61,550 nt of DNA from Rhizaria sp. SCN 62-66 (taxonomy: Eukaryota): positions 1 through 61,550 of the forward strand of contig MEDY01000154.1 in assembly GCA_001724265.1 (NCBI GenBank). Direction: 5' to 3'. The translations under genes and the position numbers were made by a program. Below the pieces are notes generated by a model. The model was given only the letters and a program-made list of their open reading frames with translations. It was not told the DNA's origin and searched no databases. Below are positions 8,001 to 41,929 of the stretch, one piece after another. Every line of letters begins with the position of its first letter. Positions within the stretch are counted from its first letter, which is position 1.

Positions 8001-11000
8001 CGCTGTGGCGGCGTGGGGATCGTACGCACCACTCGTGTCGATGTGAACCACAGCATCATTCGCTGATGACGCATACGTTGACAGCATATCTGTAGCGACT
8101 GTAAACACCGACTGAAGCTCGCCACCAACAACACGCTGTTGAACTGTCGACGAAGTCAGTAAAACGGGTACAGCACGGGATACAAAAGTTGCCACGGTAT
8201 CAGTCTGGCCCTTCCGAAGCAGCGTCGCTGTGAGGCGAGACACGAGACGGAAAGAACGGGACTGCAAAACGATGCTTGCCGTGGCAGACCCCACGTCCCC
8301 CGCAGTGCCTGAGCTGAAGTCGGTGTAAGACACTGTCAACGAAAGCGTATACATCGTGGCAAACGCGAGCGAGTGCGCTGGAATGATAAGATTGCGTGCG
8401 GCAGCAGCTGCACCTGCGCCAACAATATCTGCAAATGTGGCCCCGTTGGGTGGCGCAGGAGAGATGGCCCACTCCGCGGAAACAAAGCCATCGCCACCAG
8501 GCGCGTTACCAACCATGCCAGCCAGTGAGCAGAGGGATGCAGACGAAATTGCGTCGACAAGAAGAACTTGTCCCGGGTCGAACGAGCCGGGATCCGAACC
8601 GACAGCGTCGTCGCTGCGGGCACCAGCGGCAGCTATCGTGACCCGCGGCAGAGGCGAGGAGGTTACCGTCAAAACATGTGTACGAATAACGGGAGCATGG
8701 TTCACCATGAGCCAATTCCACGCCGAGATGCGCACTTCATGCGCACCATCAGTGAGCCCAAGATTAGAAACGTTGAGAACGATGCGCTGCCAGCGTCCAT
8801 CAAAGTCATTATCGGCAAACACACTGAAAGAGGGCTGCCACTGCGCAACAAACGCGTTTATAGCATCGGAAAAGGCCGAAATATCGTCATCCGTTGTGAC
8901 GGTACCCGCAGCGCTGGCTTCAGCCGCTAGGACAAGCTCCCATAATACCTTGATACCATGTCCTTCGGCGCCACTGGTTGGAATTGCTGTAAACACAAGT
9001 TCACTGCAAGTGTCCACACTCGTGGGTCCCGCGATTGTGAAATTTAGCGGTGGTGGAGATAAGACAGGGGGCATATTGACAGGTGTTGCCGCAAGTTGTG
9101 CAGGTGCCGCCGGCCAAACCGAGGTGACAGCCATGTCTTCCTGTGCAAGCGCAGTGTAGCCGGGCTGCGAAAAAACAGTCGCATACGCATTGGGCACTGA
9201 CGCCGCAATGACAACTGAGTTGAACTTTAGAGGGAGGAGAGTAAACGACGGATTAAAATTGGTACCGAGAGTAACAGCGAACGTTGCCCCATCTGACTTC
9301 CAGCCGCACAGCGTGGTGTTCCCACCTAGCAGCGCAAGTGTTGCAGGCGTAAGAACAGCTGAGCACGCGGTTGTCGTCGCGTTGACTTCAAGCGCGAAAG
9401 CAACCGCAGTCGCGCGTGAGGCAGTCAGCTCCCCCGCCGTCGTCGATGCAATAGGGGTGGCGGTAGGAAGCGCGGGCGCTGACAGCGCTCCTGCGAGGTA
9501 AGCACCATGTGGGGGCATCGTCGTCGAGAGCGAAAACTTAAACGTGACTGTCGCATGGTCAGCCAGCAGCGTAGTGGCAGTGGGGACAGGAGTAGGAAGA
9601 CAAGCAAGAAGCGGCACAGGCAAAAGGAGTAATGGCAGCACTGGGGCAATGCGACGCGCGTACGAGATGGCATTCGTCGACCACACTGCGGACGAGGCGT
9701 TAGTACCTGGTGCCACAACGCGCACACAGCGTGGAAGGCGCAAGTGCGGGTGCGACAGAGCGCTGTTGGTGCTCAGAGTTTCGATAGTCGGCCACGCCGT
9801 CAGCGCTGCGGTGGCAAGCGCAATGTCATCACTCCGGCACACGGGACGTGCGACCACTCCCAGAGGCACTGCGGCGGCGGGAAAACCAGCCTCAGGGGGA
9901 ACTGCAGCGGCGGGCGCGGCTGAATGGCAGATGGCATTCTGCGGACACGGATAGTTATTATAATCGTCATATGAGCCGGTGTTCGTGGCATCAGCCGCAA
10001 GAAGTGCAATTGAGGCAGGCGTGACAAGATCGGAAGTCGGAGCAAACAAAGCCGCTGATTCAATCACATTGGCAGTGTCCGCTAGCAGCGCCGTCGCGGA
10101 GCAAGTCGGGATAGGAACGCACTGGGGCGGCGTCACACCGGCGCCCCAGCCTGCACCGCCACCCTGACAGAGGTGCGTGATGTTTTTAGCGCGGTGTGCA
10201 TGAGAAAACTCGTGACCAGTGTCGCACGTGTACGTTACAGCGATCGCACCCGAGATCACGCTAGCATGCGCCGTGCCGTTGTTCAGCGCGTTAATCGGAC
10301 ACTCGTTTGAGGCCGCGCAGACCAGCTGTGTAAGGGTCGCGGTCCACTGACCGGAGCCTAAGCTGGGATCGCACTGCGCCGTCACAGTCGCCGTGCTCGC
10401 GAACTCGGGCGTCATGGCGGCACCAAGAGCGCACGCGACGGTCACTGTCGTCGAAACACGGTATCCTTGTGCGTTGCTGGGTGGGACTGTCGTCAATTCT
10501 GAAGCAGTGCCGTTGGCCATAGTGTACTTAGTTGTGACCATGAAATCTTGAACAGCCACTGCGGGACAAAGCTTACCGCACATACCTCCAGTTGCCAGCA
10601 TAAGCTGCTTGCTAGCACCACAAACAACGGCACCATTCATATCAAAGGCTAGAGAGACATACCCAGACTTGCAAGGGGCAGTGCGCGTCGCAGCGAGAGT
10701 GATTGGTGCAAAAGATGTTGGACGCAGCATCCCTTTGCTATTCAGTAAAGCAGCGTTAGATGACGTCAGTGGATCACACGACGTCGACTCTGGACATTGC
10801 GCAGTATTACGGCCTTCCACAGGCACACGACGCCACTGGCCGCTCTCACAATACAGTGTACCCCAAGGAACTGCAGCGAACTCGTTTGCTGTCGCACTGA
10901 GGATGTGGCAAAAGTAAGCACCACTCACTCCGTGGCCTGCTACTCCTGCGCCAGTCACTGCCGCAATGTAGGTATTAAGATCGGCGTCAGCAGCAACGAG

Positions 11001-14000
11001 AGAGACAAGCGAGCCTGCCTGGCGCAGAGCCTATAATGTGGCACCAAGAGCTAGATTAGGATCGATCTCAGTGATCGGACCACAACTAGCTGTGGAGGCT
11101 GACGCGGGCTTGACCATAAAACGAGCTGACAACGTACAGTTACCCATACCACACGTTAACAGTCCGGATGTGGCTTCAAGCAATGGAAAGTACGCAGATT
11201 CGGAGCCAGGCGTCGTAAATCCTATCAGCTCGTTGGCTGGCTGCGGTGTTTGAATAGCAAAAATCTCGGATTGGAGAGGAAAAGGCAGACCTGTCGTAGA
11301 CGCGAGTTTTGCAGAGTACGCGACAGGTTTCTCTTCCGAGGGAAGTGTCACAACAGTTGGCAACAGCAGGCGACGCGTGTTCGTAGAGTTGAGGCGGATG
11401 GCGTCCCAGCGTGCATACAACGCAGTCGATTCAGCAATGCTGATACCGCCGTAGAGGTACACTTCTGGTGAGAGTGCACTCGCAACGTCAGCATCGTCGA
11501 TCCTGCCCGCCTCATCTGTGAGGCGCATCTCCAGCCACGCCGCAGCCTCTGCATCGGCCCCGGTCCATACGTCAGGCGGCCAGCTAATGGCCGTAGTCTC
11601 TGAGTACTTAGAAACTGTGCGCAGGTGCCGTGACACGACTGGCGGAAACCGCACGGTCATCTGAAGAGTCTCACGCATCAGATCGTTTTTGATTGTAACA
11701 ACACCTTCTACAACTGCCCGTGGCAGGCGGGCTGCCGCTGTTGACGCAAATAGCATCAAACAAGTTACCCGCGCCGTACCGCGTGTCTTGCGCACATCGG
11801 CCGTCGCGCCGGCAACACCAAAGTTAGGCACGATAAACGACAACACGGAGTGCAGCGGCGCTGAGATAAGTTGGAAGTTGGCTTGTGGCGTGAGCGTACT
11901 AAAGCGCTCTGTTGAGTCGTAGCCAGTAGCAGACGAGTGACCACGCAATGTGCACGAGGTGATGTTGAGCGTGTCTGCGAGTGCAGGAGGCAGACGAACA
12001 GTTACGTCGTGAAATAACGACATATTTAGTGACGGAATGTCGACGATCAATGGGCGAGCGTCCGAGGTGGAAGCTGCCGACGTTGCCGTCGCAGTCAAAC
12101 GTAAGCTGTCAGCAGTATAAAGCGCACCAGCGGCGTATGGTGCCGAAACATAAACAGGCAGCGCCTCAGCAGCGTGGAATTGGAACCTCGGAGTGAGATT
12201 AATCTCGCGTTTTGACACACGCAATAAACCGTAGTGGGTAGATACTACGGCACGCGCGCGCCAGTATGTCCCAACTGCGCCACCATCACTAAACGGTGCA
12301 CGTGACTGCACGGTGAACGAGACGTGAGCTGAGACGCAAGCGCCAAGCCCGCGCGCGGCACTGATGCCGTTTCCAATTACGACCGTAGCTGCGTCAGGAT
12401 GAGACCAGCTAGAGCTAGAGCTGGAGCTAGCAAGACGCGAAACCAACTTGTGGATCTCGTAGTTCGCAGTATCTAGATCAGTGACCGTGATTGGCATGTC
12501 CGCGATCTCTGGCGCAGGTGCAACGCATGTGACCGTGATGCTGGTGTGATCAATCGCGTCGACATTTTCTATATTTGTATATTTGGGCGCGGTCCAGCTA
12601 CTATCATTCCAGTCAGACGCACACTCCAACAAAAGAGCGATTTGCGCGACGGTCGAGCCGAGTGGGACCCACTGGTTCCCGTACCACGAGGACGAGTCTG
12701 GAAGTGATCCGTCGAGCCACATACCTCCTGCACGGGAAATGACCAGTGTTACACGGTGTGCGGTCGTGGGCACCGGTGCCGCAACCGCAGCCGCGGGCGA
12801 GTAGTAGTGGGACGGGAGCACGGAGTGGCGGAACAGAGCCTCATCACTCTGCTTGATGAACGTGTGGTACCGACCACGCGGCGGCCATGCCGAAGAACCG
12901 TTGGCAGCGATAAACGCCAGTGCACCTGCGCGTGTGGTGACAGCAGTCGGGATGTGGAAGGTGAAGTAGTCCGTCGCCATCGGCTCGCTGCTATCGAGAT
13001 CGTGCGATGTCCACGCACCTTCTGTGAAAAGGTAGTAGGGCATAATCCGTTGAAACACCGAACCCAGAAAAACGTCCGCAGCCGCGTTCTGCCAAGCCCA
13101 CGGAAAACCGGCCACAGGAAGCGGCCGCCATGGATTTCCCGCCCACTCGGTGTTGACAGTGCGGCGCGAACGGTCATGGCAACGCACAATGATGACGCCG
13201 CCCCAGAAGGGCTTGTTAGCGACTGAGTTGAGGTTGAATTCAAGCACTGACGTCGTGCTATCCCAGCCCCAGTTTGACGCCGGTATCGTAGACCATGTTG
13301 CGCCCACAGAGCCCCACGCCGTGGGGTTCAAGGCGCTGGCGGAGGGAAACGTCGCAAGGTTTGGCGCATACGCGGAGCACATTGAAATATTGTGGGTCAC
13401 AGAGGTTTCACCAACGTTGGAGAAGACGTTAAAATGTTCGTTTTGTCCGGGGTAGGCCCATCCATCGTCACTGCCGTACGCCACGTTGACTGTAAAGCGT
13501 GGTGACCGTGGGACCAGCATCACCATAACAAATGAAAGGCCGGCGTCAGCCAACGCTGTCGATACAGGGTCTGAAGGGGGCTCATCGGCACTTCCCGTGT
13601 ACCCATCGTAGTCCTAAAAAGCCAGAAAGATTATCAGAACAAAACACACGAGAGGCAGATAAGTGCAAGTATTTACAATAAATAGGATGTGGCATTTTAG
13701 AGGTATTCATTGAAAAGCTGATGAAGCTGCACCGCAGTGGCATCGCCCACGAACCTGGTCGTTGCGAACAAAAACAATTGATGTTTTTTCAAACCCAACA
13801 AGAGGAAGCTCACGAGGCGGGCTTGGTAGAGAGCCGCGCATGCCATCTAGCTGGACGCCAGAGAAGACGTATTTGGCTGTGAAAGGTGTGTGATACACGA
13901 GATTGACAGTGGCGGAGACAGTGACAACACGCCCGACATAAGCGGTGGGCTGGTAGAGTAGGCTTGAGCATGTTAAAATAAGCAGCGTGTTAAGGCGTGA

Positions 14001-16946
14001 CAGGGGAAAGTTGGTCACTTTGACAGCAACGTTGTATCCGATACCCAATTCGCCACTACGCGCAAGAAATTCTGGAACTCCATAGGAAAGAACGATGCTT
14101 TTCATCCAGGGCGAATCCTCATTCTCCGAACCCAGTGGGTCTAGCAGCTGACACTGCGGCAGAGCTGTACCCGGGTACTCCGGGTTACCAAAGACATTAA
14201 ACAGGTCTACAGTCACTTCCACCGACGTGATAACAGCCTCGGCGTGGTTGCGCAGATACTGTTCCGTACTGATTGTGAAGGGCACGTTGATTGAGCCAGA
14301 CGTCGCACTCGTGGAGTTGTAACGCGACTCAACAATCCATGCCTCAAGCGGAAAAGCTGCCGTACCGGGCGTCACCGTGATGACAGGCCGCGCACCGAGC
14401 TTGCCGAGCTCGGGCGGGTCTGTGTCAAGCGCGTATTTTGCCGCGGCGTCAGACAAGGCCAGGGGCTCGCTCATACAGCTGATAACATCTTCCAAGCCAC
14501 CCCCACCGCTGGATTCAGAGACTGGCTTGTCGCCGGCAGTTGAAATTAGTGCCGATGTGCACGAAAAGAGCATCACGTCAACACCGTCAACGAGGCCGAA
14601 GGGGAGCGCCATAGCAGTCGGCTTGGGCGGCGTGTTTGACTGGCACGACAGAGTCCACGGCACGCCCGGAAGTACGTCCAAGTCGGCGGGCAGTACAGCG
14701 CCGTAGTCAAAATCATACGTGGTCGAGACAGATCCAGACAAACCAGCACCACGAAATCGAAGCTCACTATCAAGAGCGTCCTTATCAACAAACGCAGTGT
14801 CCTAAAATATCAATCAATAACGAACAAAGCAGAAGCACTGGAAGTCAGATATATCAAATTCGTATGCAAGAAGTTCATCGGAAATGAAGAAATTCTTGTC
14901 AAATGACGATTATCGAATGAAACTACGTTATAAGATATGACGAACCTGAGTAAAATGACAGGTGCCCGATGGGAGCTGTTCGAGGAGAAGTTTAAGTCCG
15001 TTGTCGTCAGGATTAATGTCGTTGGCCGCGGGGTCTGCCAGCTCGAGCTTGATGCCAATGCGGCGTCGGGGCCCAGTGCGGATGCCCGTGGTGGAGCCTG
15101 TGACGACAATTGTGAGGGGCGTCTGGTTCTGTGGAGAGCCAAATTCAAAGCTGGTCGCAACGGGCAATGTCACCATCACCTGAGCGCGCGAACCGGGAAA
15201 CTGCGGCGGCGCAATGGCCTCCAGTCCACATGACGACTGCTGTGCGACCACGCGCGCCGCAGGCCCGGCGGCGTCGGCAGCGGTAGCGCCCTGTACCAGC
15301 GCCAGTGAGAACGCACCACCGGCATGAACAATGGCGCGCGCGGCAGGAGTCTTGCCCGCGAGCAATTGGCACGTGATTGTCAGACCGGCCTGGTACTCGC
15401 TGCCCCGGGAGACGAGAGACGCGAGCACGGTGGCCAGCCAGGGGCGAGGCAGCGAGATCGCCACGCACTGCTGCCCCGCGGGCGCGGCGCCGGGAGCGAG
15501 ACGGGCCGCAGAAGCTGCAACGCGCTGTGAGGAACCAACCATGAACGGACTGTCTTTCGGGAAGGAGCAGTACGCCGATTCGGCACTGTTGTGCGCCGGG
15601 AACAGCTCCATGAAAGACGTGGTCGTGTCAAATGTCGGGTCAGATTCAGTCGGAGCAGCGCGCTCACACACGCGCAGCGCCACGGCGTCGGTGGCAACTA
15701 GCCCAATGCGCAGAAGAGCGGGGAAGCCAACAACGCGGAAGCGCACGTGAGAGGGCCCTTCGGGGTCGATTGAGGAAATGAATGCGGCGCCACAGAAGGC
15801 AGTGCCCAGTGACGGGGTCCGCTGAGGGTCGACGGTGAGCTGCGTTGTATAGCCATGCACCTCCAGGTCGTCGCGCGCCTTGCGATCGCCGCCGGTCAAG
15901 AGTGGGAGCGCGAGCCAGTGCGGGTTCAGAGCAACGGGGTTTTGCAGCACGAGCTTCTCACTGGGCGCCGCAGAAGTCGTGCCGTCGGTGTAGAAGATAG
16001 TCGCAGTGATGTCCCCGCCGCGCAACACGGGCTGCACGTGAAGCATCTCTTCGTACGCCTTGCCCGTAAAAAGCCATGACACAATAAGCAGGCCGTCGAA
16101 GGTCGGCGTGTGCTTCGCGGGCGCAGCGGTGGCCGTTGGCGAGAGCACCATCACGACATAACCTGTCGCCGAGATCGAGTAAGAGGTCGACGTGAAGGCC
16201 TGCGTCTCGCTCGCAATCGCAAACGTGGAGCCGTGTGCGCGAAGCACGTCCGCAACCGCAGAAGGAAACGTCAGCTGCAGAGTTGTGGGGTGCAGCAGCG
16301 GTGACGATAGTGTTGTAGGTAGCGCCGTGACGCGAATTTGCGCCGCAGTGGCGCCAACGGGAAAGGTCACCCACAGCGCACGCACGACCACGGGTGTGAA
16401 GATGTGATCGTGGTAAAATGACGCATAACTAAATTCCCCAATTGTAAGCATCCCCACCCATGTGCAATAATCGTCGATAGGGCTGTTGTTTGAGAGGTAG
16501 CTCGTCGCGCTACCCTGGGAGTAGGGTTCCCACGTGCGGAACGGCGCGACAACAGGGGTACCTATGATGCTAGCGACAACGCGGAAGTACGCACCTGCGG
16601 GTCGCGTGCCTTTGGAGGTGAAAAACACGATATCTTTGTCAGGTGCGCCCAAAGGTCCAGTACTGATGGATAGCGCGGAGATGGGGCCTGTTGAGCTGTT
16701 GTAGTACTCCATCTGTGCGGCCCATGTCATTGTGTTAAATCGGCTGCTATCAACCGAGCCACAGGAAATGGGAATGCGAACACCAGCAAAGTCATTCGGG
16801 ATCGGCATCAGAGAAAATCGGTACTCAATACTCAGCAAATTCGTCGTGTCGGGTGAGTGCAGCGTGGTGACATAGGCGTTTGTGTCACTTACCATTTGCG
16901 CGGCCGCCAGCGCTCCGAGGGTAAGCAAGAGTACAACACAGATCAT
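2043..16946 (-). CDS. Giant (~4,870 aa) polycystin-1/REJ-like GPS receptor. Exons 16946-14946, 14801-13755, 13613-2043; in-frame TAG at 11033-11031
   Basis: Joins ORFs 14928..17027, 13707..14741, 11031..13553 and 2043..10958 through two phase-0 GT-AG introns and one in-frame TAG. Signal peptide MICVVLLLTLGALAAAQ; Cys-rich sushi-like modules (YTCDTGHEF...PQC); REJ-like segment (PQSGQC...CRGWTDEPAALPLRYRWGY); GPS motif CRFYDTAAKTWSGAGC...CKCSHLTIF; about 5 TM helices including the PKD1-type HLWSS..RP...S.QAR..C..M...AMY segment. Stop TGA. Confidence 0.8.
13614..13754 (-). other. Spliceosomal intron, 141 nt, phase 0
   Basis: CAG|GTTCGT...TTTTTAG|GAC; joins VRNDQ to DYDGYTG in frame and removes a stop codon. 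Confidence 0.8.
14802..14945 (-). other. Spliceosomal intron, 144 nt, phase 0
   Basis: CAG|GTTCGT...ATTTTAG|GAC; AT-rich; joins CHFTQ to DTAFVDK in frame. Confidence 0.8.
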
Positions 16947-18073
16947 AATAAAGTTGTATGCACAAGCTTTGCATACAGATTCAAGGCGTTGTCGCACTAT
17001 GAAGGTGACCATAAGGTACACGATCAACAGGCAACAACAACAGCAGCTGTTTCGTCGCAGCTGTTACTAGTCGTGGAGAGTGGCCGTGTCAAGTGACAGA
17101 CGATGAGCACTCGCAGGTAGGAGCTAGCTTCGCAGTAAGCAAAAGCAAGCCACGCCAGGTGCACGGCCGTTTGTGATTAGATTATGAGGCCCAACACCTA
17201 AGCAGCGGTGTGCAGACAGCGAGGAGACAAGATGAGGAAGTCGAGCGACAGGTCTCGAGGAACGACTCGCTCGATGCGACGCAGCGCTGGGCATGTCAAA
17301 TGACGCAAAGAAGCAGAGTAAGCGGAGTATATAGTATTACCAATACAGATTTCCCGCATGATACAATTCGCATATCGATATCAGCTTCAATGCAAAGTTA
17401 TACGGTACGCTGACAAGTGTTAGCAAGCTGTCATGCAAGGCCAGAAGAGCAGGCCAATATTAACCACCGACATGTGTCCCTTAGCAGTTCACGAGTAATA
17501 AACACATAGAAAATACAGTAAATTATCGCTAAAAAGTACGCAGGATCCTCTTCACGAACTCAACGAGCCGTACATTCGTATCGCCCAAAACGCACGACGA
17601 CTCCTCTTTCACCCGCCGCTGCGACTGTGGGAGTGACCGTGGGCAGTCACATCAGTCGGTCGGTCAAGCATAGGTCAAGACTTCGACCAAAGACCGACTG
17701 ATCGCGATTTGAATATCCCGATGTGTGTAATGCCTCTGGTTTGGCACAATTGAGATAGATATTAAAAAATATTGCAATAGTACTATTGGAGTATATTTAT
17801 ATTTGTCATAGATGCTTATTCAACGTGTGTTAACGAAAACCCCCAATGTGCGCGAGGCAACTTCATGAAAGGCCGCTGGGTTCAAAATGTCATGCAATTC
17901 AGGGTTGTGTGACGGTGTATGACAAGTATAACTTACGTTTTATTGGAACAACCGTCAGCTATTTAGTTTGTTATGCTCTGATGCGAATTCCACCTCTTGA
18001 GGCTCACGATAACCAACTTGCCTTTTTTTCCGCAGCTTCGTTGTCCCTTCGTTTTTGTTACACACTCTTTATC

Positions 18074-21000
18074 ATGCTCTCCCCAGGTGCCTCCACATCC
18101 CGAATCGCACTGGCGCTTGGCGCTGCAGTGCTATGCACGGCGTTTACAATCCTTGGCGCATGGCGCTGGGCACAAGACCCCTGGACGGTGTGGCCGGCCG
18201 AACGCAAGAGGCCCTTCTATGGTTACACGCTTGGCGGTCTCGCTGGCCTCTTCGCCATGATCACATTTGCGCCTATTGCCTTTGCCACTTTCCTTTCCGT
18301 TGGCCAGGTAGCGCTGCAATGGTTGGCTACTAACGTTGAGGCCGCCGCCGCTGTGCGCGCGCGCCTTGCCGCCAAGCCTCCCGGCAGCCGCCTTGGCCGT
18401 TTCGTCTCTGCGGACGAGCCCAGCGTGCAGCAGCACGAGCTCCAGCAGCAACAAGCGCGTTCCTCGTATCGCCGCGCTGTTGCGGCATACCTTGGCGTTG
18501 CTTTCCTTGCGCTGGCCGCGCTTGTGGGGCTTACGATCGCGGGCTGGTACGTCGGTGCGCATTGGATCCTGTCGTGTCGCGGTGGACTCTTCTGCATCGC
18601 TTCGGCTTCGCACATCGTGCCGCCCGATCCCGAGGGCACGCCTAGCGCCACGCGCAGCTGGTGGGGCTCCACTGGCGCTATGGTGATGTTTGCCGCACTG
18701 CTTTTCGGCGCCGCCATCGCTGCCCGTGTCGTCGTTGACACCGTCAAGATCATCCGTGGCTCCCACACTGCTGCCTCCGCCGCTGTCTCCACCACTGACA
18801 ATGCGTACGCACAGCTTGGCGACGCCTCCGCGGCCAACGACCAGAAGCCTGTGTTGCGCTCTTCGGTGCGCCCGCTGAGTTTGCGCGGCTTGTTCGCGCT
18901 GTACGCGTGCTGCCTTGTCGCCGCTTTCCTCTTGCTCCTCGTCGGCGGTTACCTTCCGAACGGTTTCTACGCCAAGATGACTCCCGCCGGACTCGCTTCA
19001 GCGGCTCGGCGCGCGGCCGTCGACATCCCCGCCGTTATTGCCGCCGCCAAGGCCAACGGCACCGACGAGGCAGTCGCTGCACAGTGCAAGCAGCGTAACC
19101 TGTTCACGTGCCCCGAGCTACCCGATGCGACAATGATTACCAAGAACCTGCGCCTTGCCGACGAGTGGGTCGTTAAGCTCTACCCCAGCAACGTCATCTT
19201 TTACATCTTCGTTGCGCTGTTCCCGCTTGTCGCGCTGCTTATGCGCTCTGTGCCCGCGCTTGACCGCATCGGCAGCGCTAAGCTCCGCGTGCGCCGCTGC
19301 TCGCCCATCGGAGCGCTTAAGCGTCTCTGCGCGCCTCTGTGCTGCCGTCGCAGCGCTGCCCCGGACGCCGGTAAAGCTGGTCATCTGCAGCAGGCTCCAC
19401 AGCTCTCGCGCTCGTTGCTGTCACAGGATGGCTCCAACAGCAACAGCAGCAGCTTGACTGTCGCGGAGCAACAAAAGGCGGCCCCGCGCGCGCGTATGGC
19501 GTTCTTCACCGTGCGCGAGATCCTTGCCCTGCTCTCGGTGCTTGCAATGGCGCTGCTGTTTTTCTCGTATTGGTTCTTTGACCACAACTGGAACGCCAAG
19601 TTCCCTAACAAGAAGCTCCCCACTCTGGTGGAGAATTGGTGCCGCACACTGGGCCAAGTCGCCACGCTCTTCTTCGCTCTGCTACTCTTCCCCGCAGCGC
19701 GCAACTCGCCCGTGCTGGCGCTGCTGGGCGTGTCGTGGGAGGCCGCAATCCAGTATCACCGCTGGCTGGGCACTGCTTTCCTGGCCGTCACCGCCGCGCA
19801 CGCTGGCGTTGCCATCAAGTGGTATGACGACAAGGGCGGACTCCCCGGTGACCTCGTGCGCGTGCCGATGCTCCATGCGCCGCATAGCAATAACTTCACC
19901 ATCCCTCTCGCGCACTGGGCCACGCTGGCGACGTTTATCTTCATCGGCGGGTTCTCGCTGATCCCACGCGTGCGCCGCGCGTGCTACGAGCTCTTCCTCT
20001 ACGCGCACCTTGCGACGTACCTGCTTCTCACGCCCACAGTGCTGTGGCACGCGCAGGCCTCGTGGGTCTACCTCGCCCCCGGCATGCTCATTTGGGCCGG
20101 CGACAAGGCCGTGCGTCTCTTCCGCTCCACACGCGCCGTCGAGCTGCGCCCCATCGCACTCCCGCCCACGCCCGCGCGCCCCCGCGGCACCGTCGTCATG
20201 GGCGCTGCCGCGTTTGACTGCGGCGCTGCGGGCCAGGTCGTCGAGCTCCGCGTCTCGGCTAAGAGTCTGCAGTTTGCCACGGGTCAGTACGCCTTCATCA
20301 ACGTCGCCGAGCTCTCGCTGTTTGAGTGGCACCCCATGACTGTGTCCTCCGCGTCAGTCTACGCCGGCCGCACCCGCGGAGACGCCGAGGGCAGCGCCGA
20401 CAACGACGTCACTTTCCACATCAAGGCCATGGGCGCTAAGACCTGGACCGACGCGCTGTACAACCACGTTCTTGCTCACCAGCAGAAGCAGCTCGCTCTC
20501 AACGCCGCGAACCCAGACAGCGGAATGGCTGGTGCCGTGGTCCCGCTCCCGCTGCCGCTCACTGTCGCTCTTGACGGCCCCTACGGCCGCCCGCTGGACT
20601 GGGAGAACTACGACGACATCGTGCTTGTCGGCGGCGGCATCGGCTCCACGCCCTGCAAGTCCGTCTTCGAGACCGTTCTGAACCACAAGCGCAATGTCCG
20701 TAGCGGCCGCGACAACGCCGCCACCGCCGGCTCCGCTGTCGAGGGCCCGCGCGTGCACCTTGTCTGCGTGGCGCGCGACGCCTCTCTGTTCGACTGCGTG
20801 CTGCGCGACACCCTCTCCGGGCTGCCGCTGCCCGCGACCACCGCGCAGCATGTCAAGGGCAAGGGCCGTGGTGGCATCGACGACGCGCGTGCCAGCTATA
20901 TTACGGACGACGACTTCACCGTTCAGCTCTTTGTGACGAACCCGTCCACTAGCGCCTCCGCGGTGGTTGGCGGCGTCGACGCGACCGAGTACTATTACTA

Positions 21001-21421
21001 CGAGTCCGACAACGAGGACGCGCGTTCTACCCTGCCCGCGCCCGGTTCTGTTGACTCGATCGGCAACGACCATGGCTTTGAGTATGCCGTGTCCCCGCTT
21101 GCGCCCGTGCCGGCCAGCAAGGCCGCTTCGGCGCGTGTCGACGCCTCGCGCAATATCGCCGCGAGCGCTGTCGCCGAGTCGGGGGCCAGTACCGCGGTCG
21201 CGTCTCGCCTTGCGTTCGGCCGTCCCGACCTCGACGCCGTGATCCCGGCCACGATTACGCGCGCGCAGCCTGGTCACATGGCGCTGTACCAGCCGCAGGC
21301 GCAGCGCGGCGAGCGCAAGACGCTCGTGTTTGTGTGCGGGCCTCAGGCCGTGGTGGAGGAGTGCGAGGCGCTGGCGCACACGCACGGCTACCATTTCCAC
21401 GCAGAGACGTTCACCCTCTAA
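18074..21421 (+). CDS. Ferric reductase / NADPH oxidase family flavocytochrome with extra N-terminal TM region (~1,115 aa)
   Basis: Heme-ligating His pairs (YHRWLG..AHAG; LYAHL..LWHA), FAD motif EWHPMT, DGPYG, NADPH motif VGGGIGSTP, VFVCGP and C-terminal FHAETF. Start placed at ATG 18074 where coding-like composition begins. Stop TAA. Confidence 0.9.
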   Translation: MLSPGASTSRIALALGAAVLCTAFTILGAWRWAQDPWTVWPAERKRPFYGYTLGGLAGLFAMITFAPIAFATFLSVGQVALQWLATNVEAAAAVRARLAAKPPGSRLGRFVSADEPSVQQHELQQQQARSSYRRAVAAYLGVAFLALAALVGLTIAGWYVGAHWILSCRGGLFCIASASHIVPPDPEGTPSATRSWWGSTGAMVMFAALLFGAAIAARVVVDTVKIIRGSHTAASAAVSTTDNAYAQLGDASAANDQKPVLRSSVRPLSLRGLFALYACCLVAAFLLLLVGGYLPNGFYAKMTPAGLASAARRAAVDIPAVIAAAKANGTDEAVAAQCKQRNLFTCPELPDATMITKNLRLADEWVVKLYPSNVIFYIFVALFPLVALLMRSVPALDRIGSAKLRVRRCSPIGALKRLCAPLCCRRSAAPDAGKAGHLQQAPQLSRSLLSQDGSNSNSSSLTVAEQQKAAPRARMAFFTVREILALLSVLAMALLFFSYWFFDHNWNAKFPNKKLPTLVENWCRTLGQVATLFFALLLFPAARNSPVLALLGVSWEAAIQYHRWLGTAFLAVTAAHAGVAIKWYDDKGGLPGDLVRVPMLHAPHSNNFTIPLAHWATLATFIFIGGFSLIPRVRRACYELFLYAHLATYLLLTPTVLWHAQASWVYLAPGMLIWAGDKAVRLFRSTRAVELRPIALPPTPARPRGTVVMGAAAFDCGAAGQVVELRVSAKSLQFATGQYAFINVAELSLFEWHPMTVSSASVYAGRTRGDAEGSADNDVTFHIKAMGAKTWTDALYNHVLAHQQKQLALNAANPDSGMAGAVVPLPLPLTVALDGPYGRPLDWENYDDIVLVGGGIGSTPCKSVFETVLNHKRNVRSGRDNAATAGSAVEGPRVHLVCVARDASLFDCVLRDTLSGLPLPATTAQHVKGKGRGGIDDARASYITDDDFTVQLFVTNPSTSASAVVGGVDATEYYYYESDNEDARSTLPAPGSVDSIGNDHGFEYAVSPLAPVPASKAASARVDASRNIAASAVAESGASTAVASRLAFGRPDLDAVIPATITRAQPGHMALYQPQAQRGERKTLVFVCGPQAVVEECEALAHTHGYHFHAETFTL

Positions 21422-22323
21422 GCACCACTCTCGCTTGCACTTGTAGTAAAAGAGAGCGCGACTGCGACTGTCTTTTCTTTCTTTTATTTTGGAGGACCCT
21501 CTCCTGTTTCTCGAGATACTATTTGCCGTCATATGTTCTTACTTCACTAGGTTCGAGTTCAAAGATATGATATAGTTGTGCTGTATCTAACTATCATATT
21601 TATGGATTATTCCAATGTTGTATTCTTAGGGATTGTGCATGTGTATCGTTACATGTTCTAGCTAAATGCTTTAGAATGTCACCATTACAATTTAACTCAT
21701 GTTTTACCATCGATTCTGTATTTTGTTTTCCGTTCTAGGTTTTTTTTGTTGTTGTATTTTTCACTTGAAGAAATGTTTATTCCACGCTGTTCAACTCTTT
21801 TTGAACAGTCCATGTATTTTTTTAAACCATGGTTTATCGATACGATTTCGCCGCTACACATCGCTCAATTCCTTGCATTTTGCAACACACATCACCATTG
21901 CATCATTTGACAGAATCAACCACCAACATTTCTTCTCACAGCGTCTACATGTGATGAGGGTCCACGGCACTAGAGGCTATGCCCTTACTTAGTAGTTGCA
22001 GTTGTAAACATCGTTGTCTGTTATCTGTCTCGAATGACTTGTCATTCTGTGGCGTGTAGATGTCGCTTTTTCTTTTTGCGCGCTCCGGCCCTGCACGGAT
22101 CATAATCAGCGAAGTCAGTGTCTTGATATAACAAACCATCGTTCAAATGTGTTGAAGCACATCATTTGATCTTGAAATACAGCTTGAGAAACCTCGCGCG
22201 CGCATGAGTGACTCACTAAATCTATGTATCGTAATCAAGTTTAAGAAATGCTATAAACACAGAATCATTCACGTCATTCACCCCATCTTTGTTCAAGCAA
22301 TACCAACACAAGTAAAGCAAGCA

Positions 22324-25300
22324 TTAGTTGCGTGCCTGTGTCATAATGTACGGGGCATACGGCAGCAGTTCACCCGCCGCAGCGCAGTCGTACAGAAACG
22401 CTGAACTTAGGTTAACGAATGCGCGACGCTTGCAGTACGGACATTCACTCCCTACACAGATAAGAATCCAGAAACAGAGAGCGCATAACAGTGGGAGTTA
22501 GTAAAAATAATGTGCTCACTGTTAAGAAATATAGTCAATTCCAATGGTAGCAAAGCAAACCACGAAAAGGCCTGAAGTAGCAACAGTCGTACCTGGGAGT
22601 CCCGTGATCCAGATGGGGAAGTGCGTGCCCTGCATGCCGCCCATGCGCTCGCGCTCGCGCTCCGTCAGCGTCTGCAAGTGCGGCCTCGCGCCGGGCGCCG
22701 TGGTGAAGCGCTCGGTGAGTTCGTCCACGAACACAGGCGCCGCGACGGCCGCGCCCATCCCCGTGGCCCAGCGTGCAACGGCCGCGACGTCCGCGGGGTG
22801 ACACAGCTCCGCGCTGCGCGTCGGGGCGGGCGGGGCGGTGGCCGCGACGCTGCGGCCGCGCGGAGCCGCAGCGCGGATCAGGGGCTTCTTCGATGGCGCC
22901 AGCGCGACGACGCCGAGCCCGTTTCCGGTGGCGGAGGCGTCGCGCGCGGCGCCGCCGCTGTAGCACTGCGTGCCACTGCAGACGAGCGAGAAAACTGAGG
23001 ACGGAGTCGGCGCGGGCATGTCGTCGGGCGCCGAGGAGAGCCACATCGGCAGCACGACGGTGAGCCCGTCCAGCGGCGCCGCGCGCAGCAGCGCCAGCAT
23101 GGCCTTTCCAGGGGCGTGCGCGCTGACAGTGGCGGGCGGCGCAACTACAGTGTTAACTGCGGGCTCATTGGCAGCGTGTGTATCAACAGAGACGTCAGAT
23201 AGCACCTCCAGTGATGCAGCAGCAGAGCCTGCCTCGAGGTTGGCAACGGCAGCAATGGCAGCTGCAGTCCCGGCAGCTTCAGCTTCAAAATGAGCGGCAA
23301 TAGTGGCCTGAACGTCAGCATCCGACTCGGCATCCGCCTCAGCCGCGGCAAGTGCCTCAGCCTCCGCAGCCGCCGCCGCCTCGGCAGCTGCAACAGCTAC
23401 GGCTTGTCCAGTCGCAGCCTTTCCAGCAGCTTCTGCTTGCGCAGCAGCCTGCGCCTCGTAAAACTCCGCGTCAGCATCGTTGCCATCGCCGTCTTCGAAG
23501 AGAGCCGCAAACGGATCAAGCGCAGTATATCCCTCAGCATCCGCGTCGGCTGCAACCGCGTGGTCATCAAACTGGTCAGAGACAGGCGCGGTGTCCACTG
23601 CAGCACCTACAACAGCATCTGCGTCTTCCATCGGCATGACATGCGTGCCTTCAACACTTTCCTTTGTTGGGTCTGATGACGCAGACGGTTCCCCATTCAG
23701 CATCACAGTGCTATTCGCTGCACGTTGCGTTGCAGTATGAGTCGCGGCTGCGCTCTCGCCGGCGCTGGCCTCGTCCCAGTCAGCGCTAAGCGACCGCTCC
23801 CAGCCCGCGCGCGCGGACACGGCCGTCGCGCCAGCGGCGATGCGACTGGCGCGATCCTCCGCCTCCTCCGTCGCGGCCTGCGCAAGCGCGGCCGCGTCGC
23901 CGCGTTGTCGCGCTGCCAGCGCGCGCGCAGCGGGGTTGTGAGAGTAGTAGCACACAATGGCAGGCACGCCGGCGCCGCCGGCGTAGGTGCGCAACCCGCG
24001 CTCCAGCGCGTACCACACGGCGTTGCCGGCGCCGGCGCCCTGGGACGCGGAGTATCCGTGCTTCGGCGTGACAATTGCGAGGAGCATCGCGGAGGCAAAT
24101 GAGACGCACTTGCGCAGCGCGAGCGCGAAAGCAGCCTCAGAGAACACACGCGTTTGCCGCGAGTAACACACGAGCAACGCTGCGAAAGTCCGCTTGCTGC
24201 CGCCCTGCGCGCCGGCCCCGGCGGCGGTGGGCAGCTCGACGACGTGCACCGAGCCCAGCGGCGCGTCCTGCGCGTCGCCCGCCGCAGCGTCGAACTGCTC
24301 CGCCACTGCGGGGTTCGCCGCGCGCAGCACCGAAAAGATGCCTCCGGTGCCAAAGCGCCCCGGCGCGACAAAGTGCAGCAGCAGCGTGCCGCCGCGCGCC
24401 TCCTGAAACGCGCGCGCAGCCGCGGCGAGCGCGGCGTTGAGTGACCCGCCAGCGGCGCTCGCGATGCGGTGCGCGGACGGCAGCGGAAACCCGAGCGTAC
24501 GGCCGGGCGCGGAGATGTCGGCAAACACGTGGTGCACCGCCGCGCCACCGTCGTCGACGTAACCCTCACTATGAGCACCATCGTCCTCGCTGCCCACGTG
24601 GTCTCGCTTGTCGAGCGCAGCACGCGCAAGCGGGACCGCCCAGTAGTGAGACTGAAGCAGCGACCGCGCCGCGGCGGCAGCAGCGGTGGCCATGGTCGAG
24701 GAAGACTCGGATTCCGCCGAAATTACGGCAGCGCGCCGAGCTGCGACAAGCGCTGCAAGCCTGGTCCGCTCCGCAATAACAGACGTGTCAACATTAACAG
24801 CATCAACGTCTTCTGCAGAGGACGTGGTAGAGCTCGCCTGAGAGACAGCAGCGGCGAGGATACTATCCACATCAGTTTCCCTCGTGTTTGCATCATCTGA
24901 GTCCTCCGTCTCGCTGCCATCAGCATCACTAGCGCGCGCTTTGCTAGGAACCAGTGCAGTCACAGCCGCCTCAACTGTGTCGGGCGCAGGCACTTGTGCC
25001 GAGAGGTAGCAGCGCCCCGCAGCGCCCGCGGCCGCAGCCTCCTCCGCGGCGAACGGCACCACCGCAGCAACAGTAACGGCAGGTGACGGCGCGTGCAGCG
25101 ACACGTTACCAACCGCAGGCAGCTTGGCCCAGCGGCTCTGGCGGCGCGCGCGCACCGCAGCGGCAGAGGACGCCGCGCGCGCTGTATCGCGTGCGTCACG
25201 CGTTTTACGCTGCGCCTGCAGCGCCCAGCGCCGCAAAAGCGCGCACACCGCGTCAGATGCGACAGCGCTGCCCGGCGCCGCTAGCGCGTCCGCTTCCGCG

Positions 25301-35837: not shown

Positions 35838-36859
35838 TGGATGTGACAGTCTACAAGCGGCAGCAAGTGTGTGAACAATGCGGATAAAAGCACACGCGGA
35901 AGTAAGTAATGATCGTGACGTACGTGGATGTGCGTGGTGCAACGAGAGCGCGAGGGGGAGCGGAGGAGAATGTGGGTTGGTGAAGAGGGAAATATGGTGA
36001 GCGAAAGTCGCACAAGTCGAGGCGTACTGCGCAAAAGAGAGATTACTATTTAGTGTTATGGTAAATCACGCCGATAATTACCACGGAATTAATATAAAAT
36101 CGCATTCCACGAACATTTTGTGGGGAAAGTTCCAACTGCCGTGACACACAGCGCCGCGCTTGGCTTCTCTCGCTCGCTCACTCGCCGCTGCGAGCTTTTT
36201 TGCGAACTTGCTTTACGTCGTTCGTCGTGGTGACGAGCGAACGACGAGTCACGGTCAGTCTCTTTGGGTAGCACTTTAACAGCGTAGAAGACTGAAAGAC
36301 CGTCGTGGTAACCGTCTTTATGCGGAGTGTCCGGGAGATATGATACGCGTTTTATATTATTCTCTTTTTAATTTTTGCTTGACAAGTTTTTAGCGCGCGC
36401 CAGTCTCTCTTTTATCATCGCCGCTCCTCCACTGGTTTTTGTTCGAGTCTAGGCGATTGGGGAGGGCACTCTTTGAACCGCGGCAGACCACCCCGTCCTC
36501 TCTAACTTTTCGGATTTTCCTTTTGACGAATTTTGTGTGCCATTAAATCGCATCACCTGCCTCATACTTCTTCATACCCTTCACACAACGTGTATGCCTC
36601 TCGCTTTGTGCCTTTTCGCCACTCAACCGACCAGCTCCGGTGCTTCCTTCTGCTCCCTTGCGAGCCTGCCTAGAACCTCACCGAGCCACGACAGACGTGT
36701 TATACGGTATAGCTACATCAGCTTGCTAGACTGCAGCTGTTGCAGCTTGTCATCACTCGCACTGAACACCGTGCCTCGGGGCACGCGTGCGCGCACCACC
36801 CCTGCGCCTCAGCAACCAAGCAAACTACAGTCGCTTGACTGAGCTCAACCACGGGGACC

Positions 36860-38149
36860 ATGCTTCGTTCTTTTGATTTGGACGCGCTGATGAGCGACTA
36901 CTGGGTGACGGTTATCTCCGCCATCTTTGCGGTGCCGACGCTGTGCATCGCCTTCGCGTGGATCCACCACTTCGCCAGCTCCGTGCCCTGGACACGCCGT
37001 CGTCGCCTCAACACGTGCGTCATCCGCATCCTGCTTATGGTGCCCGTGTACTCAGCCACGTCTTTCTTCGGTCTCCAGTTCCCGCACTCGGCGCTCATCT
37101 TCCGCACCGTGCGCGAGTGCTACGAGGCCTTTGCGCTGTATTCGTTCTTCCTCATGATCACGCTCGTGCTAGGCGGCGAACAGCGCATCGCGCGCCGCCT
37201 CAGCACGCGCCCGCCCGTGCCGCATCTCTTCCCGCTCTGCCACCTCGCACCCTTCGCGCCTGGCTACCCGTTTTTGTGGCACTCCAAGGTTGCCACGCTG
37301 CAGTTCGTCGTCTTGCGCCCGCTCATCGCTATCATCGCAGCCGTTTGTGGTGCGTTCGGCGTGCTCGGCGACGGCGTCTTCTCGCCCTACGTCGCTTACC
37401 CGTACCTTGCGTTCGCGGCGTCCCTCTCACAGGCCTACGCGCTATATTGCCTTGCGTTGTTCTACTCGCGCGTCGCGGCGCCGCTGAAGCCGATCCGGCC
37501 GATCCCCAAGTTCATGGCCGTGAAGCTCATCCTTTTCTTCACCTACTGGCAGGGCGTGGTTTTGGCCGTGCTCGTCGACTCCGGCCACATCGCGCCCCGC
37601 GCGTCGCTGTCCGCGCTCAACGTCGCCTCGCAGGCGCAGGAGATGCTCACGGTCATCGAGATGTTCTTCTTCGCACTGTACAACCTCGCAGCGTTCCGCC
37701 CGCAAGACTTTGACGCCCTCACGCCGCAGCACCAACACCAGCACGGCGGCGTTGCTGTGGCCGGAGCAGCGGCGCACAAGGCCGCGCTGCAGGGGCCAGC
37801 GGCGCTGCCGCAGCTGCAATACGCGCACGCGCACTCGCACACGGAGGGCCATGCGCACGCGCAGGGATGGACACCGCGCAAGCCGGCACCGCGAAAGTCC
37901 CTCGGCGGCGAGTACGCGCACGACAGCGGTCTCCACAGCAAGTGTTCTCAGTGCGACACCGCCGCTGTGGCCGATGCGGCCGCGCTGATGCTGCTGACGG
38001 GCGACTCAAAGGGCCGCAGCAGCAGCATTGTGCGGAGCAGCGGTGGCGGCGGCAGTCGCGGCCGCGATCGCGATGTTGCGGCTGAGCGGAGGGCCGCCGC
38101 TGCCCGGTCTGAGGCCGCCGAGCTCTGGCCCGGGCACTCCGCCTCCTGC

Positions 38150-38180
<31 letters not shown>

Positions 38181-41100
38181 ACGGACAGCTCTGCGCCGCG
38201 CACACTGGAGCAGCTGCGCTGGGGCGCGGCCGCAGCGGCAGCAGCGCCAGCGCACATGGCCTCACATACAAAGGAGACCGGTCTAGCCTCGGCCACGGCC
38301 ACGGTCATGATGCTCTAGCGCGCGGCCGCAGCACGAGCGCCGCCCCCGACGCCACAGTCACTCACGGCGCGTCGTCGCAGTCTGAGTACCGTGTCACAGT
38401 GCACACACAGGGACCCGCGCCGCCGACGCCGCCGACGCACTTGCGCAGTGCACTCGCGACGAGGAGCACTACGGTGGATGGCAGAGACGCGTATCTGCTG
38501 CCGCTGCCGTTACCGCGGTCCCCTAGCGCCGCGCCCGGTCAGTGCACGTGCCACCACGGAAAGCACGGCCGTACTTTAGGTCACGGGCACGGTCACAGTC
38601 CTCAGACCGGCTCCGGTGCGGCGAGTGCGCGATTGCGGGGTTCGGCCACTGCGCCCGCGTCGCCCGCAGTCTCTGCACGCTCCCTGTGCGCTGCCGCTGC
38701 CGCTGCCGCTGCTAGTGGCGCTGGTGCTGATGAAGGCGATGACGACGGCGTGCGCAGCCGCAGCGGGAGCCTGTCGAGCCGCGCCAGCAGCAGAGCCAGC
38801 GTGTACAGCGTTAATAGCGCCGCGGTCGCCTCTATCGCCACCTCCGCTACCCCCTCTGTGGCGGCCACGGCTGCGTCGGCCGCCGCTGGGAGCAGGCGTG
38901 GCGGAATGAAGCCGATCTGGTACACTGGCGCGGGAAAACATGACCACGACGACGAAGATGACGACGGTGACGACGGCGACGGCGACGGTGATGATGACGA
39001 GGAAGAAGAGGAGGAGGACGACGAAGACCTTGGACTCGCCGCTGACGATGACGACGACGACGACGACATTGACATTGCCTGTGAAAGCGGCGTGAAGGTG
39101 ACTCGCAAGGGCGTTGGTAAAGACGGCGCGCCGCTCTTTGCACAGGATGACGACGAGGACGACTGCGACTGTGAGGATGGACTCACCTCACCGTTATCGC
39201 CCGCTTATGTCACAGGTTCTGCTCTTGCGAGCGCCGCCGCATCGCCGGTCAAATTCGTCTCTGGCTCCGGTGTCGGCGCTCGTCACAGTAACGCACGCAC
39301 GCATGCGCACTCACATGCACAGACCTCGTCCCAGGCCCGCCTGGTGCGCGCTGGATCTGGCGACGCTGCGGATGCCGCGAATGTGACCGGCGCCGCTGTT
39401 TATGACGAAGAGCGCGGCGACTGCATTGCACACAGCGAGCTTGGCGGCGACGAGACGGGCGCCGAGTTCGCGCGCGCCAGCGACTACGGCGACTGGGACG
39501 GCTACAGCGACGCCGGCGGCGGCGACAACCCCGCCGCCCCGGGCGACGACGTCGATGTTAGCAGCCGCGGCCACGGACATGGCCAGGGTTCCGGTGACGG
39601 AGACGGCGCCGGCGACGCGGACGAAGGCCTGCTCGCGTCGATGGTCGATGGACTCACGCACGTGCGGTCACGCACACTGGCCGCGCTGCACCTGCTGCGG
39701 CCCGCGCACGTGGCGGCCAGTCTGCAGGCGCTTGCGGGCACTGCGCGCGCTCGTGTCGGGGGCTACAAGCCGCTGCGCGCGGGCGGCGCTACCAACAAAC
39801 AGCAGCCACAGCAGCTGCAGCTGCAACAGTTGCAGCCACTACATCAGCATCAGCAGCTGAGGCACCAGATGTCGCAGCACGCTGGCGAGGCGCAGCTGTC
39901 GTTCGCGCACCATCCGTCGTTCCCTCAGCTGGGACCGCTGGCGCCCGCGCCGGACGTCTCCGCTGTTCCGGCCCCCGCTAGCGCGAGCGCCGCTTCTGCT
40001 GCTGCTGCGGTCGCAGCGGGGCCCGTGGCGGTCGCCGCTGCGCCATCATCGTGGCAACAAGGCCTCGCGTTCCTGCCTCTGCGCGCGCCCTCCGCTCCGC
40101 CCCACGTTGCGGCCCCATCTCGCGCGGCTGCTTCCTTCGTTGTCGGTGTCACCGTCAGCGCGCAAAGTGCGGCGGGCCTGCGCTCCGCTGCTGCTGCGGT
40201 TACGCGTCCCGGGGCTGAGGCTGACACCGATGCTGCTGCAACCGAGGCTGCCACTGCGATCGCCGCGGCGGCTGCCACGGCTGCAATGCTCGCGGCTGAG
40301 GCCGAGGCCGACGCTGAGACCGAAGTTGAGACTGAAGCCACCCGCAGCGCCACTGGGACTGCGACCGATAAGAAGGCTCAGGCGAACACGAAGGCCAAGT
40401 CTGCTGCGGCGCAAGCGGCTGCTGAGGCCGAGGCTGTAGCTGAGGCCGAAGCTGAGAGCGCCGGCCGCGCCCTCCTGTTGCGCGCACACGCGACGCTGCA
40501 TCGCACACCTGGCCGCGGGAATACGCTGGCGCACACTGCATCTGCGCAGCAAAGAGCCGCTGTGCAGAGCGCGTCTGGGCGCAAGCACGTGGACTCGGAT
40601 GAAGACGACGACGGGAGCGCAAGTGATGTTGTTGACCTTGCGGATGGCGGCGACGGTGACAGCGATAGCCGCGATGCCAGCGGTAGTGTGAGCGAGCTCG
40701 AGCTAGGGCTTGCCACGGACTCAGACTCGGACTCGGACTCTGGACCTGGCGCCGCCGCTGCTGTCCGCAGCCCTACCGCGGCTGCAAATGGCCCCAAGCT
40801 GGCACTGACACGCTCTCGCTCGCACTCGCCCGAGCACTCACTGCCCCCGTCTCACTCGCCTCACATCGCTGACGGCCCCGTGCCTGTTGGGATGGAGCAG
40901 CAGTCAGTGCAACCACGCCTCGGCCTTGCGCTCACGCGCTCGCAGTCCCAGTCGCACCTCCCGGGCAACGCCGCTGACGTCGCCGCTGCAGCGCGCAGTC
41001 CTGTGCCTCTCCAGGCGCAGACACAGACACAGAGTCAGATGCAGATGCAGATGCAGACTCGGCCCCGTGTGTTGTCCGCGCACCCTGCGCTCACTGCGCG

Positions 41101-41929
41101 TCCGTCGCTCGCGTCGCAGTCGCTGTCGCCCTCCCCTTCCAGTCCGCAGCTCAAGTCGCTCACTCAGGTCCAGACTCAGATCCCGACCCGGCCGCATTCG
41201 CAATTGCATTCGCCATCATAGTCGCCGACCTCAGTAGTCGCGGCAGCAGCTCCGCCGCACCGCTCGCCCTCAGGCTCGCCAGCGCCGCCGCAGACCGCAG
41301 TCTCCGTCGCGTCAGTAACCGAAGCTACCGGTGTAAGTGGAGACCTGGGTCTGAGCCGAGGTTTAGTGCTGTCGCGGACCGCGAGCAGCGCGCACAGCGA
41401 GGCCGAGCCCTCCCTGTCGCATCACTATGACGCCGGCGCGGCGATGAATAATCTCTCGCCCACTGCCTCCGCTGCTGCTGCCTTCGCTGCTGCTGCCTCC
41501 GCTGCTGCTGCCTCCGCTGCTGCTGCCTCCGCGGCTGCTGCCTCCGCGGCTGCTGCCTGCGCAGCTGCGACTCCTGTGGACGACTTAAGTCGCGGCGCAG
41601 TGACCGTGGGCGGCGGTGGCGTGGCGGGGTCGATCCGCAACCCGCTTAAGTACCTGTTTAAGGCGATCAACGTGAGCGACATTGCGCGCGACACGCGCAA
41701 AGTGCTTAGACGCACGCCAGCCGTCGCTGCCGCAGCTGCCAACAGTGGCGCTAACGCCGGTAGCAGCAGCAGCAACAACAATGGCGCCGGTAAAGGCGAT
41801 GCGACGCCGGTGGGTGGTGCTGTTGCGCCGGCGGTGGGGGAGACCGGCGCCAAGAATCGGAGCAAGAGCAAGGGTGCGACTGCGGCTCGGACGAACGCGG
41901 GCAAGCCTCCTGCGCAGCAACAGTTTTAA
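36860..41929 (+). CDS. TMEM184: TMEM184/OST-alpha family transporter-like protein with a very long low-complexity C-terminus (~1,689 aa); in-frame TAG at 41219-41221
   Basis: IRILLMVPVYS, RECYEAFALYSF, LQFVVLRP, KFMAVKLILFFTYWQG, IEMFFFA. The frame stays open after the TAG (SPTSVVAAA...) into ORF 41366..41929. Stop TAA. Confidence 0.85.
41471..41560 (+). repeat. Coding minisatellite, ~6 copies of a 15-bp unit GCTGCTGCTGCCTCC (AAAAS)
   Basis: Visible tandem repeat encoding [30 protein letters not shown]. Confidence 0.8.

Follow-up and report, generated by a model that had tools for sequence, protein, structure and literature searches.

The 61.5-kb stretch of DNA analysed here (contig MEDY01000154.1, hereafter the window) carries long open reading frames (ORFs) whose products are of eukaryotic type in a Pfam scan, and four of its genes contain an in-frame TAG (Table 1). 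The original prediction, made from the sequence alone, held that these TAGs are translated and that UAA and UGA remain stops. We modelled 14 exons in 12 genes (16,265 codons) and confirmed all four TAGs by translation at the positions predicted: they lie in a giant GPS-motif gene (site 1), a CHD1L-like SNF2-macro gene (site 2), a dual TKL kinase gene (site 3) and the gene for an OST-alpha/TMEM184-type transporter (site 4). In-frame counts over the modelled codons are four TAG, no TAA and no TGA, matching the earlier claim that no internal TAA or TGA is present. UAG is as rare as predicted, with four sites in the window or about 0.25 per 1000 codons, and is found only in long genes here.

Table 1. 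In-frame TAGs, genes and introns of the window.
Feature	Position	Strand	Remarks
In-frame TAG, site 1	11033-11031	-	exon 3 of giant GPS-motif gene
In-frame TAG, site 2	25965-25963	-	linker of CHD1L-like SNF2-macro gene
In-frame TAG, site 3	29011-29009	-	PGDYG-like domain, C-terminus of dual TKL kinase
In-frame TAG, site 4	41219-41221	+	low-complexity tail of OST-alpha/TMEM184-type transporter
GPS-motif giant membrane protein (PKD/REJ-like)	2043..17063	-	GPS motif PF01825 downstream of site 1 TAG
Giant gene exons	about 17000-14946, 14801-13755, 13613-2046	-	TGA end at 2043-2045
CHD1L-like SNF2-macro gene	22522..28044	-	TAA end at 22522-22524
Dual TKL kinase gene	28583..31588	-	exon 1 to 29675, exon 2 29539-28586, TAA 28583-28585
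OST-alpha/TMEM184-type transporter gene	36860..41929	+	Pfam Solute_trans_a 1.9e-71; TAA 41927-41929
Intron, giant gene	14945-14802, 144 nt	-	AT-rich, GTWCG donor
Intron, giant gene	13754-13614, 141 nt	-	AT-rich, GTWCG donor
Intron splitting second kinase domain of dual-kinase gene	29674-29540, 135 nt	-	GC 0.34
Intron, DUF7932 gene	56584-56843, 260 nt		GTACGT donor, in AT-rich island
PIH1 + PIH1_CS + CS protein	42958-47004	+	domain content
NOX-type ferric reductase	in window		Pfam
Ribosomal-L1-domain protein	in window		Pfam
Yip1 protein	in window		Pfam
FYVE-TBC protein	in window		Pfam
DUF7932 protein	in window, intron 56584-56843		Pfam

GC content is 43% at the left edge of the window and 51-74% elsewhere. 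Because introns and intergenic DNA are both AT-rich and coding sequence is GC-rich, coding and non-coding DNA are readily separable in this organism. All four introns open with GTTCGT or GTACG[AT] and close with a T-rich tract and YAG, and an exon-final CAG precedes the three short ones. Those of the giant gene have the borders CAG/GTTCGT...TTTTAG and a GC of 0.33 and 0.41. The three short introns each span a whole number of codons and contain in-frame stops; TAG is the terminal triplet of two of the four introns. Other TAGs beside long frames lie inside the AT-rich introns (13614-16, 14802-04, 29624-26 and 56778-80), and the remaining frame-flanking ones are in 5' leaders (28045-47 and 42955-57). 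Local GC at the four in-frame TAGs is 0.53-0.80, compared to 0.33-0.41 in the three introns measured, and no GTWCG donor is found upstream of any of them. The four TAGs are within GC-normal coding sequence.

Past each TAG the frame resumes, as had been predicted for some 140 to 3,000 codons, and stays open for 2995, 1146, 141 and 235 codons at sites 1, 2, 3 and 4. At the off-frame stop density (1.83% per codon), the chance of an open run of this length is 9.5e-25 for 2995 codons, 6.4e-10 for 1146, 0.013 for 235 and 0.074 for 141; at the intergenic density (4.9%), the corresponding values are 6.9e-66, 1.2e-25, 7.7e-06 and 8.6e-04. The two short continuations are weak evidence on their own, because open frames often arise by chance in GC-rich DNA, and sites 3 and 4 required extra support, which was supplied by codon usage and homology. 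We scored codon usage as log-odds, trained on the other genes of the window. The score is highest in frame 0 after all four TAGs and collapses only past the final TAA or TGA; past true gene ends it drops, and more stops usually follow within 50 codons. At site 4, which sits in low-complexity sequence without usable homologues, the frame-0 score is regained from +75 to +600 nt and lost past the TAA, and codon usage is the one line of support there. Continuity of codon usage is likewise the support for translation through site 1, for which we found no homologues among proteins of 2120-6748 aa beyond the organism's own truncated protein.

All 12 gene ends, one of them belonging to an ORF that is incomplete at the start of the window, use TAA (8) or TGA (4); one or two weak ORFs (e.g. 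33063-34118, with a TGA end) were left uncounted. The prediction had listed 13 ends (9 TAA, 4 TGA), a count that we revise, and its statement that none is TAG holds. TAA is the end of those eight genes despite a third-position GC of about 0.7-0.85 in most genes.

Site 3 is the strongest case for a translated TAG. A conserved domain spans about 25 residues before this TAG to about 95 after it, and a HMMER scan with the domain retrieved 363 proteins at E<=0.001. We aligned 49 homologues, hand-chosen from the best 150 of the 363, leaving out very long multi-repeat proteins and most homologues whose matched stretch stopped short of the TAG position. In these 49, the TAG corresponds to one ungapped column between a nearly invariant WG and GD, and the nearly invariant residues that follow it (D, Y, F, Y, K) are all kept in the window sequence. 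Short homologues of the domain match Pfam PGDYG (PF14083), with which Atlas leads agree. When the TAG was entered as a residue, AlphaFold2 predicted a compact β-rich domain (mean pLDDT 86.3) with four strands ahead of the TAG and nine or more behind it. In this model the TAG position, residue 49, closes strand 46-49 and belongs to a block whose pLDDT is 96. For the public protein fragment that begins past the TAG, mean pLDDT is just 0.45 (0-1 scale).

In this organism and its relatives, dual TKL kinases carry the PGDYG-like domain (28586-29140, minus strand) as a C-terminal fusion. Elsewhere the family is found chiefly in small proteins of bacteria and phages, and one library protein (P0001, 3743 aa) has 15 stretches matching the domain.

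The gene at site 2 is laid out as SNF2 ATPase, TAG, long Ala-rich linker and macro domain, with Pfam matches to SNF2-rel_dom (1.5e-50) and Helicase_C (1.9e-15). In the alignment, its TAG takes the place of the final hydrophobic residue of L..hL.FGLDxLh, a motif found after the ATPase in CHD1L proteins, and a residue is present in this column in 20 of 21 homologues, with a gap in the other. About 27 residues past the TAG, the sequence SWSDADIDALL resembles TWTDADINALV of a 1572-aa relative (P0155), and a CHD1L-type macro domain lies 470-670 residues downstream. This macro domain matches P0155 with E=2e-17 and otter CHD1L (P0230) with E=1e-06. Since P0155 is continuous over its length, the CHD1L-like gene is one SNF2-macro unit running through the TAG.

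The TAGs could be errors of assembly or nonsense mutations, be it in pseudogenes or in one diploid allele captured by the assembly, with UAG an ordinary stop. That they are real in the DNA, as the prediction assumed, is borne out by independent contigs identical at sites 1 and 2. Site 1 is covered by a contig of 5.7 kb that another, independent study produced (2025; X4 record 17, covering 10501-15755), which has the same TAG and differs from the window at one position in 5.2 kb, 14896. Site 2 is covered without differences by DNA contigs from two further data sets (X2/X3 record 6, 23402-26930) and lies in an identical 4.6-kb contig (L001, JGI). X2 and X3 contain the same contigs at near-equal depths despite different filed years and studies and may be one data set; we counted them as a single source.

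Nonsense alleles would fit the choice of codon: given the codon usage of these genes, TAG makes up 58.5% of the single-step nonsense target, so that four TAGs out of four have P = 0.117, and codon identity alone is therefore compatible with them. Moreover, the Glu codon GAG of close site 3 homologues is one step from TAG, and rare variants are dropped from contigs. This explanation nonetheless needs hits in four of 12 adjacent genes, with no frameshift or second stop in the 2995, 1146, 141 and 235 codons downstream, in which both the codon usage and the conserved residues have been preserved. The same TAG also recurs across samples of different studies and years, and no TAG terminator is seen among the 12 gene ends. 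We regard nonsense mutation as very unlikely.

A further way in which UAG could remain a stop is that the TAGs are removed from the mRNA, by splicing of very short in-frame introns or by editing. Counting back 54 nt from the last base of the TAG, a donor-like sequence is found at site 2 (AAG/GTGAGT, 25966-26019) and at site 4 (CAG/GTCCAG, 41168-41221), and this candidate intron length is a multiple of three in both cases; two of the four real introns do end in TAG. These 54-nt candidates have a GC of 0.57-0.61, whereas the three real introns measured are 135-144 nt long with a GC of 0.33-0.41 and GTWCG donors, the fourth being 260 nt long with the donor GTACGT, in an AT-rich island. No donor-like sequence is present at sites 1 and 3, and the ungapped column at site 3 leaves no room for a deletion. 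At site 2, a contig from a poly-A RNA run (X5 record 31, 25759-26041) crosses the TAG colinearly, with no differences and no gap, and is thus unspliced and unedited with the TAG intact; RNA bins without cover (e.g. 21840-22506) were excluded from the evidence. We rejected the 54-nt mini-intron at site 2, which is GC-rich, would remove the conserved CHD1L motif and is retained in the RNA contig. The shared 54-nt spacing at sites 2 and 4 is probably a coincidence, and removal of the TAGs from the mRNA appears extremely improbable.

To assess which amino acid UAG might encode, we tabulated the residues found at the TAG position in the two sites with homologues. The site 3 column (n=49) contains E14, Q10, T5, S4, K3, D3, R2, A2, V2, H2, Y1 and I1, with Glu in nearly every one of the closest homologues. 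The prediction that this site fits Gln or Leu fails for the latter, which occurs in none of the 49. The site 2 column (n=21) contains L7, F5, Y4, E2, A1, S1 and one gap, with no Gln, and the closest relative has Phe. The hint at Leu that had been seen here is really a hint at a hydrophobic residue. BLOSUM-weighted log-odds summed over sites 2 and 3 are 1.46 bits for Tyr, 1.29 for Glu, 0.60 for Gln and 0.02 for Leu, giving no decision. Glu, Gln, Tyr and Leu are candidate residues for UAG.

Independent assemblies, one RNA contig, codon usage, homology, a predicted fold and the stops at gene ends all agree with UAG as a sense codon and UAA and UGA as stops. The main rival is that UAG is formally a stop subject to efficient near-cognate readthrough, or that the code is ambiguous, with UAG read as sense internally and as a stop near mRNA ends (cf. 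karyorelict ciliates and Condylostoma). The great rarity of UAG, at the frequency given above, is consistent with this, and the 12 gene ends leave room for an occasional TAG terminator. Near-cognate insertion at UAG yields Gln, Tyr and Lys, and under such mixed insertion the differing residue classes at sites 2 and 3 would be tolerable. Programmed stop-codon readthrough, which uses leaky UAG contexts in viruses and some cellular genes, likewise gives a longer protein by translation past UAG. In the window, however, the four TAGs have no 3' context in common: they are followed by GCT, CAA, TCC and TCG, as originally described, without a shared leaky-stop motif and with CAA at site 2 only. The downstream parts, 141 to 2995 codons long, include whole domains and are no short extensions, and such TAGs occur in four of 12 genes. 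Without efficient decoding, a TAG interrupting a folded domain, or one 2995 codons from the gene end, would carry a high cost, and TAG is used at none of the 12 gene ends. We judge readthrough or an ambiguous code to be unlikely, and consider it likely that UAG is translated as an amino acid in this organism, with UAA and UGA as the only terminators.

Several points weigh against UAG being a regular sense codon, the nonsense calculation given above among them. The evidence comes from four codons in a single 61.5-kb window. The lack of TAG at gene ends is suggestive, and with so few ends, rare or context-dependent termination is possible. Comparison with independent assemblies supports sites 1 and 2; none of the assembly pieces compared bridges site 3, and site 4 is outside the compared stretch. 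RNA support consists of one low-depth contig, at site 2 only, from a library that may contain DNA. A tRNA scan found no tRNA genes in the window. Finally, sites 2 and 3 favour different residue classes (L/F/Y versus E/Q), and no residue reaches 1.5 bits; from one clean reassignment, better agreement between the sites would be expected, though both columns are variable.

If UAG is a sense codon here, it would be decoded as an amino acid in cytoplasmic translation of nuclear genes, with UAA and UGA terminating. Such decoding would involve a UAG-reading tRNA, with either a dedicated CUA anticodon or a strongly favoured near-cognate one, and an eRF1 that discriminates against UAG. Low use of the codon, in long genes only, is the pattern that would be expected of a young or weakly decoded reassigned codon.

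The window sequence is present in public metagenome runs of several studies, sampled from bioreactors, wastewater, activated sludge and microbial fuel cells, and in one poly-A metatranscriptome. On this basis the source, GC-rich and intron-poor, is an uncultured eukaryote whose sequence was assembled from metagenome. The nearest proteins to the genes of the window have 50-70% identity; a search with the ribosomal-L1-domain protein gave six matches, the best at 68%. A search of metagenome contigs for further DNA of the organism returned only the identical 4.6-kb contig noted above, along with two unrelated SNF2 loci of 36% identity. Genome contigs searched with proteins of the two closest relatives gave no match, nor did a search of viral contigs, and an Rfam scan of the window found no families. 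Of six strain differences examined, four are in genes and all four are non-synonymous, too few for a test of purifying selection. The protein with PIH1, PIH1_CS and CS domains has a layout that we take to resemble that of a dynein pre-assembly factor, which suggests a ciliated or flagellated stage in the life of the organism.

We compared this pattern with known nuclear codes in which UAG alone is reassigned. The original prediction named Iotanema spirale, the rhizarian exLh and a few ciliates, and the list is longer: it also includes Scotinosphaera (UAG = Ser), Protocruzia tuzeti (Gln) and phyllopharyngean ciliates (Leu or Gln) (PMC11687900). In exLh, a member of the Sainouroidea, UAG encodes Leu and UAA and UGA are stops; 384 UAG codons occur in 71 genes, at conserved Leu positions and less in highly expressed genes, and the terminators are 56 UAA and 15 UGA (PMC5304391). 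The window resembles exLh in that UAG is the only in-frame stop, the terminators are UAA and UGA only (8 and 4 here), and the source is a non-ciliate protist in mixed-organism sequence data. It differs in its sparing use of UAG, where exLh uses the codon heavily, and in the lack of Leu at site 3. In Iotanema spirale (Fornicata; PMC5304391) and Protocruzia tuzeti (PMC11687900), UAG encodes Gln and the UAA stop is kept. Here, too, UAG is decoupled from UAA, and Gln fits site 3 (10 of 49); in contrast to these two, no homologue has Gln at site 2 (0 of 21) and the genome is GC-rich with long, intron-poor genes.

In the ciliate Oligohymenophorea sp. PL0344, UAA encodes Lys and UAG encodes Glu (PMC11687900, PMC10553269). 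As in Scotinosphaera and the phyllopharyngeans, UAG is there reassigned independently of UAA. It provides a precedent for UAG as Glu, which at site 3 is more frequent than any other residue (14 of 49), although UAA is also sense in that ciliate whereas it ends eight of 12 genes here. More generally, the genome is not ciliate-like, being GC-rich with AT-rich introns of 135-260 nt. A literature search, without supplementary files, found no published account of UAG being read as sense in a GC-rich protist from wastewater. A UAG-sense code with UAA and UGA stops is an already known, rare class, and this one would count as a new variant should Glu or Tyr turn out to be the residue. We put forward, tentatively and as doubtful, that UAG encodes a residue which no nuclear code is known to combine with a UAA stop (e.g. 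Glu or Tyr), and that the organism belongs to a deep and unsampled lineage of non-ciliate protists, common in wastewater systems and at an early stage of reassignment, with the codon still very rare.

Public protein records of this organism are cut at the TAGs (e.g. P0154, 692 aa, and P0274, 2961 aa; loci 22522-28044, 2043-11030 and 28586-29008), and Atlas records of its proteins are fragments that start at internal Met codons. Standard-code gene calling has therefore mis-annotated the proteome of this organism. Few nuclear codes treat UAG and UAA differently, and those that do bear on how eRF1 discriminates between these two codons and on how reassignments begin. With UAG at such low frequency, and recurring in samples from several studies, this organism would give ready access to an early stage of reassignment in a non-ciliate.

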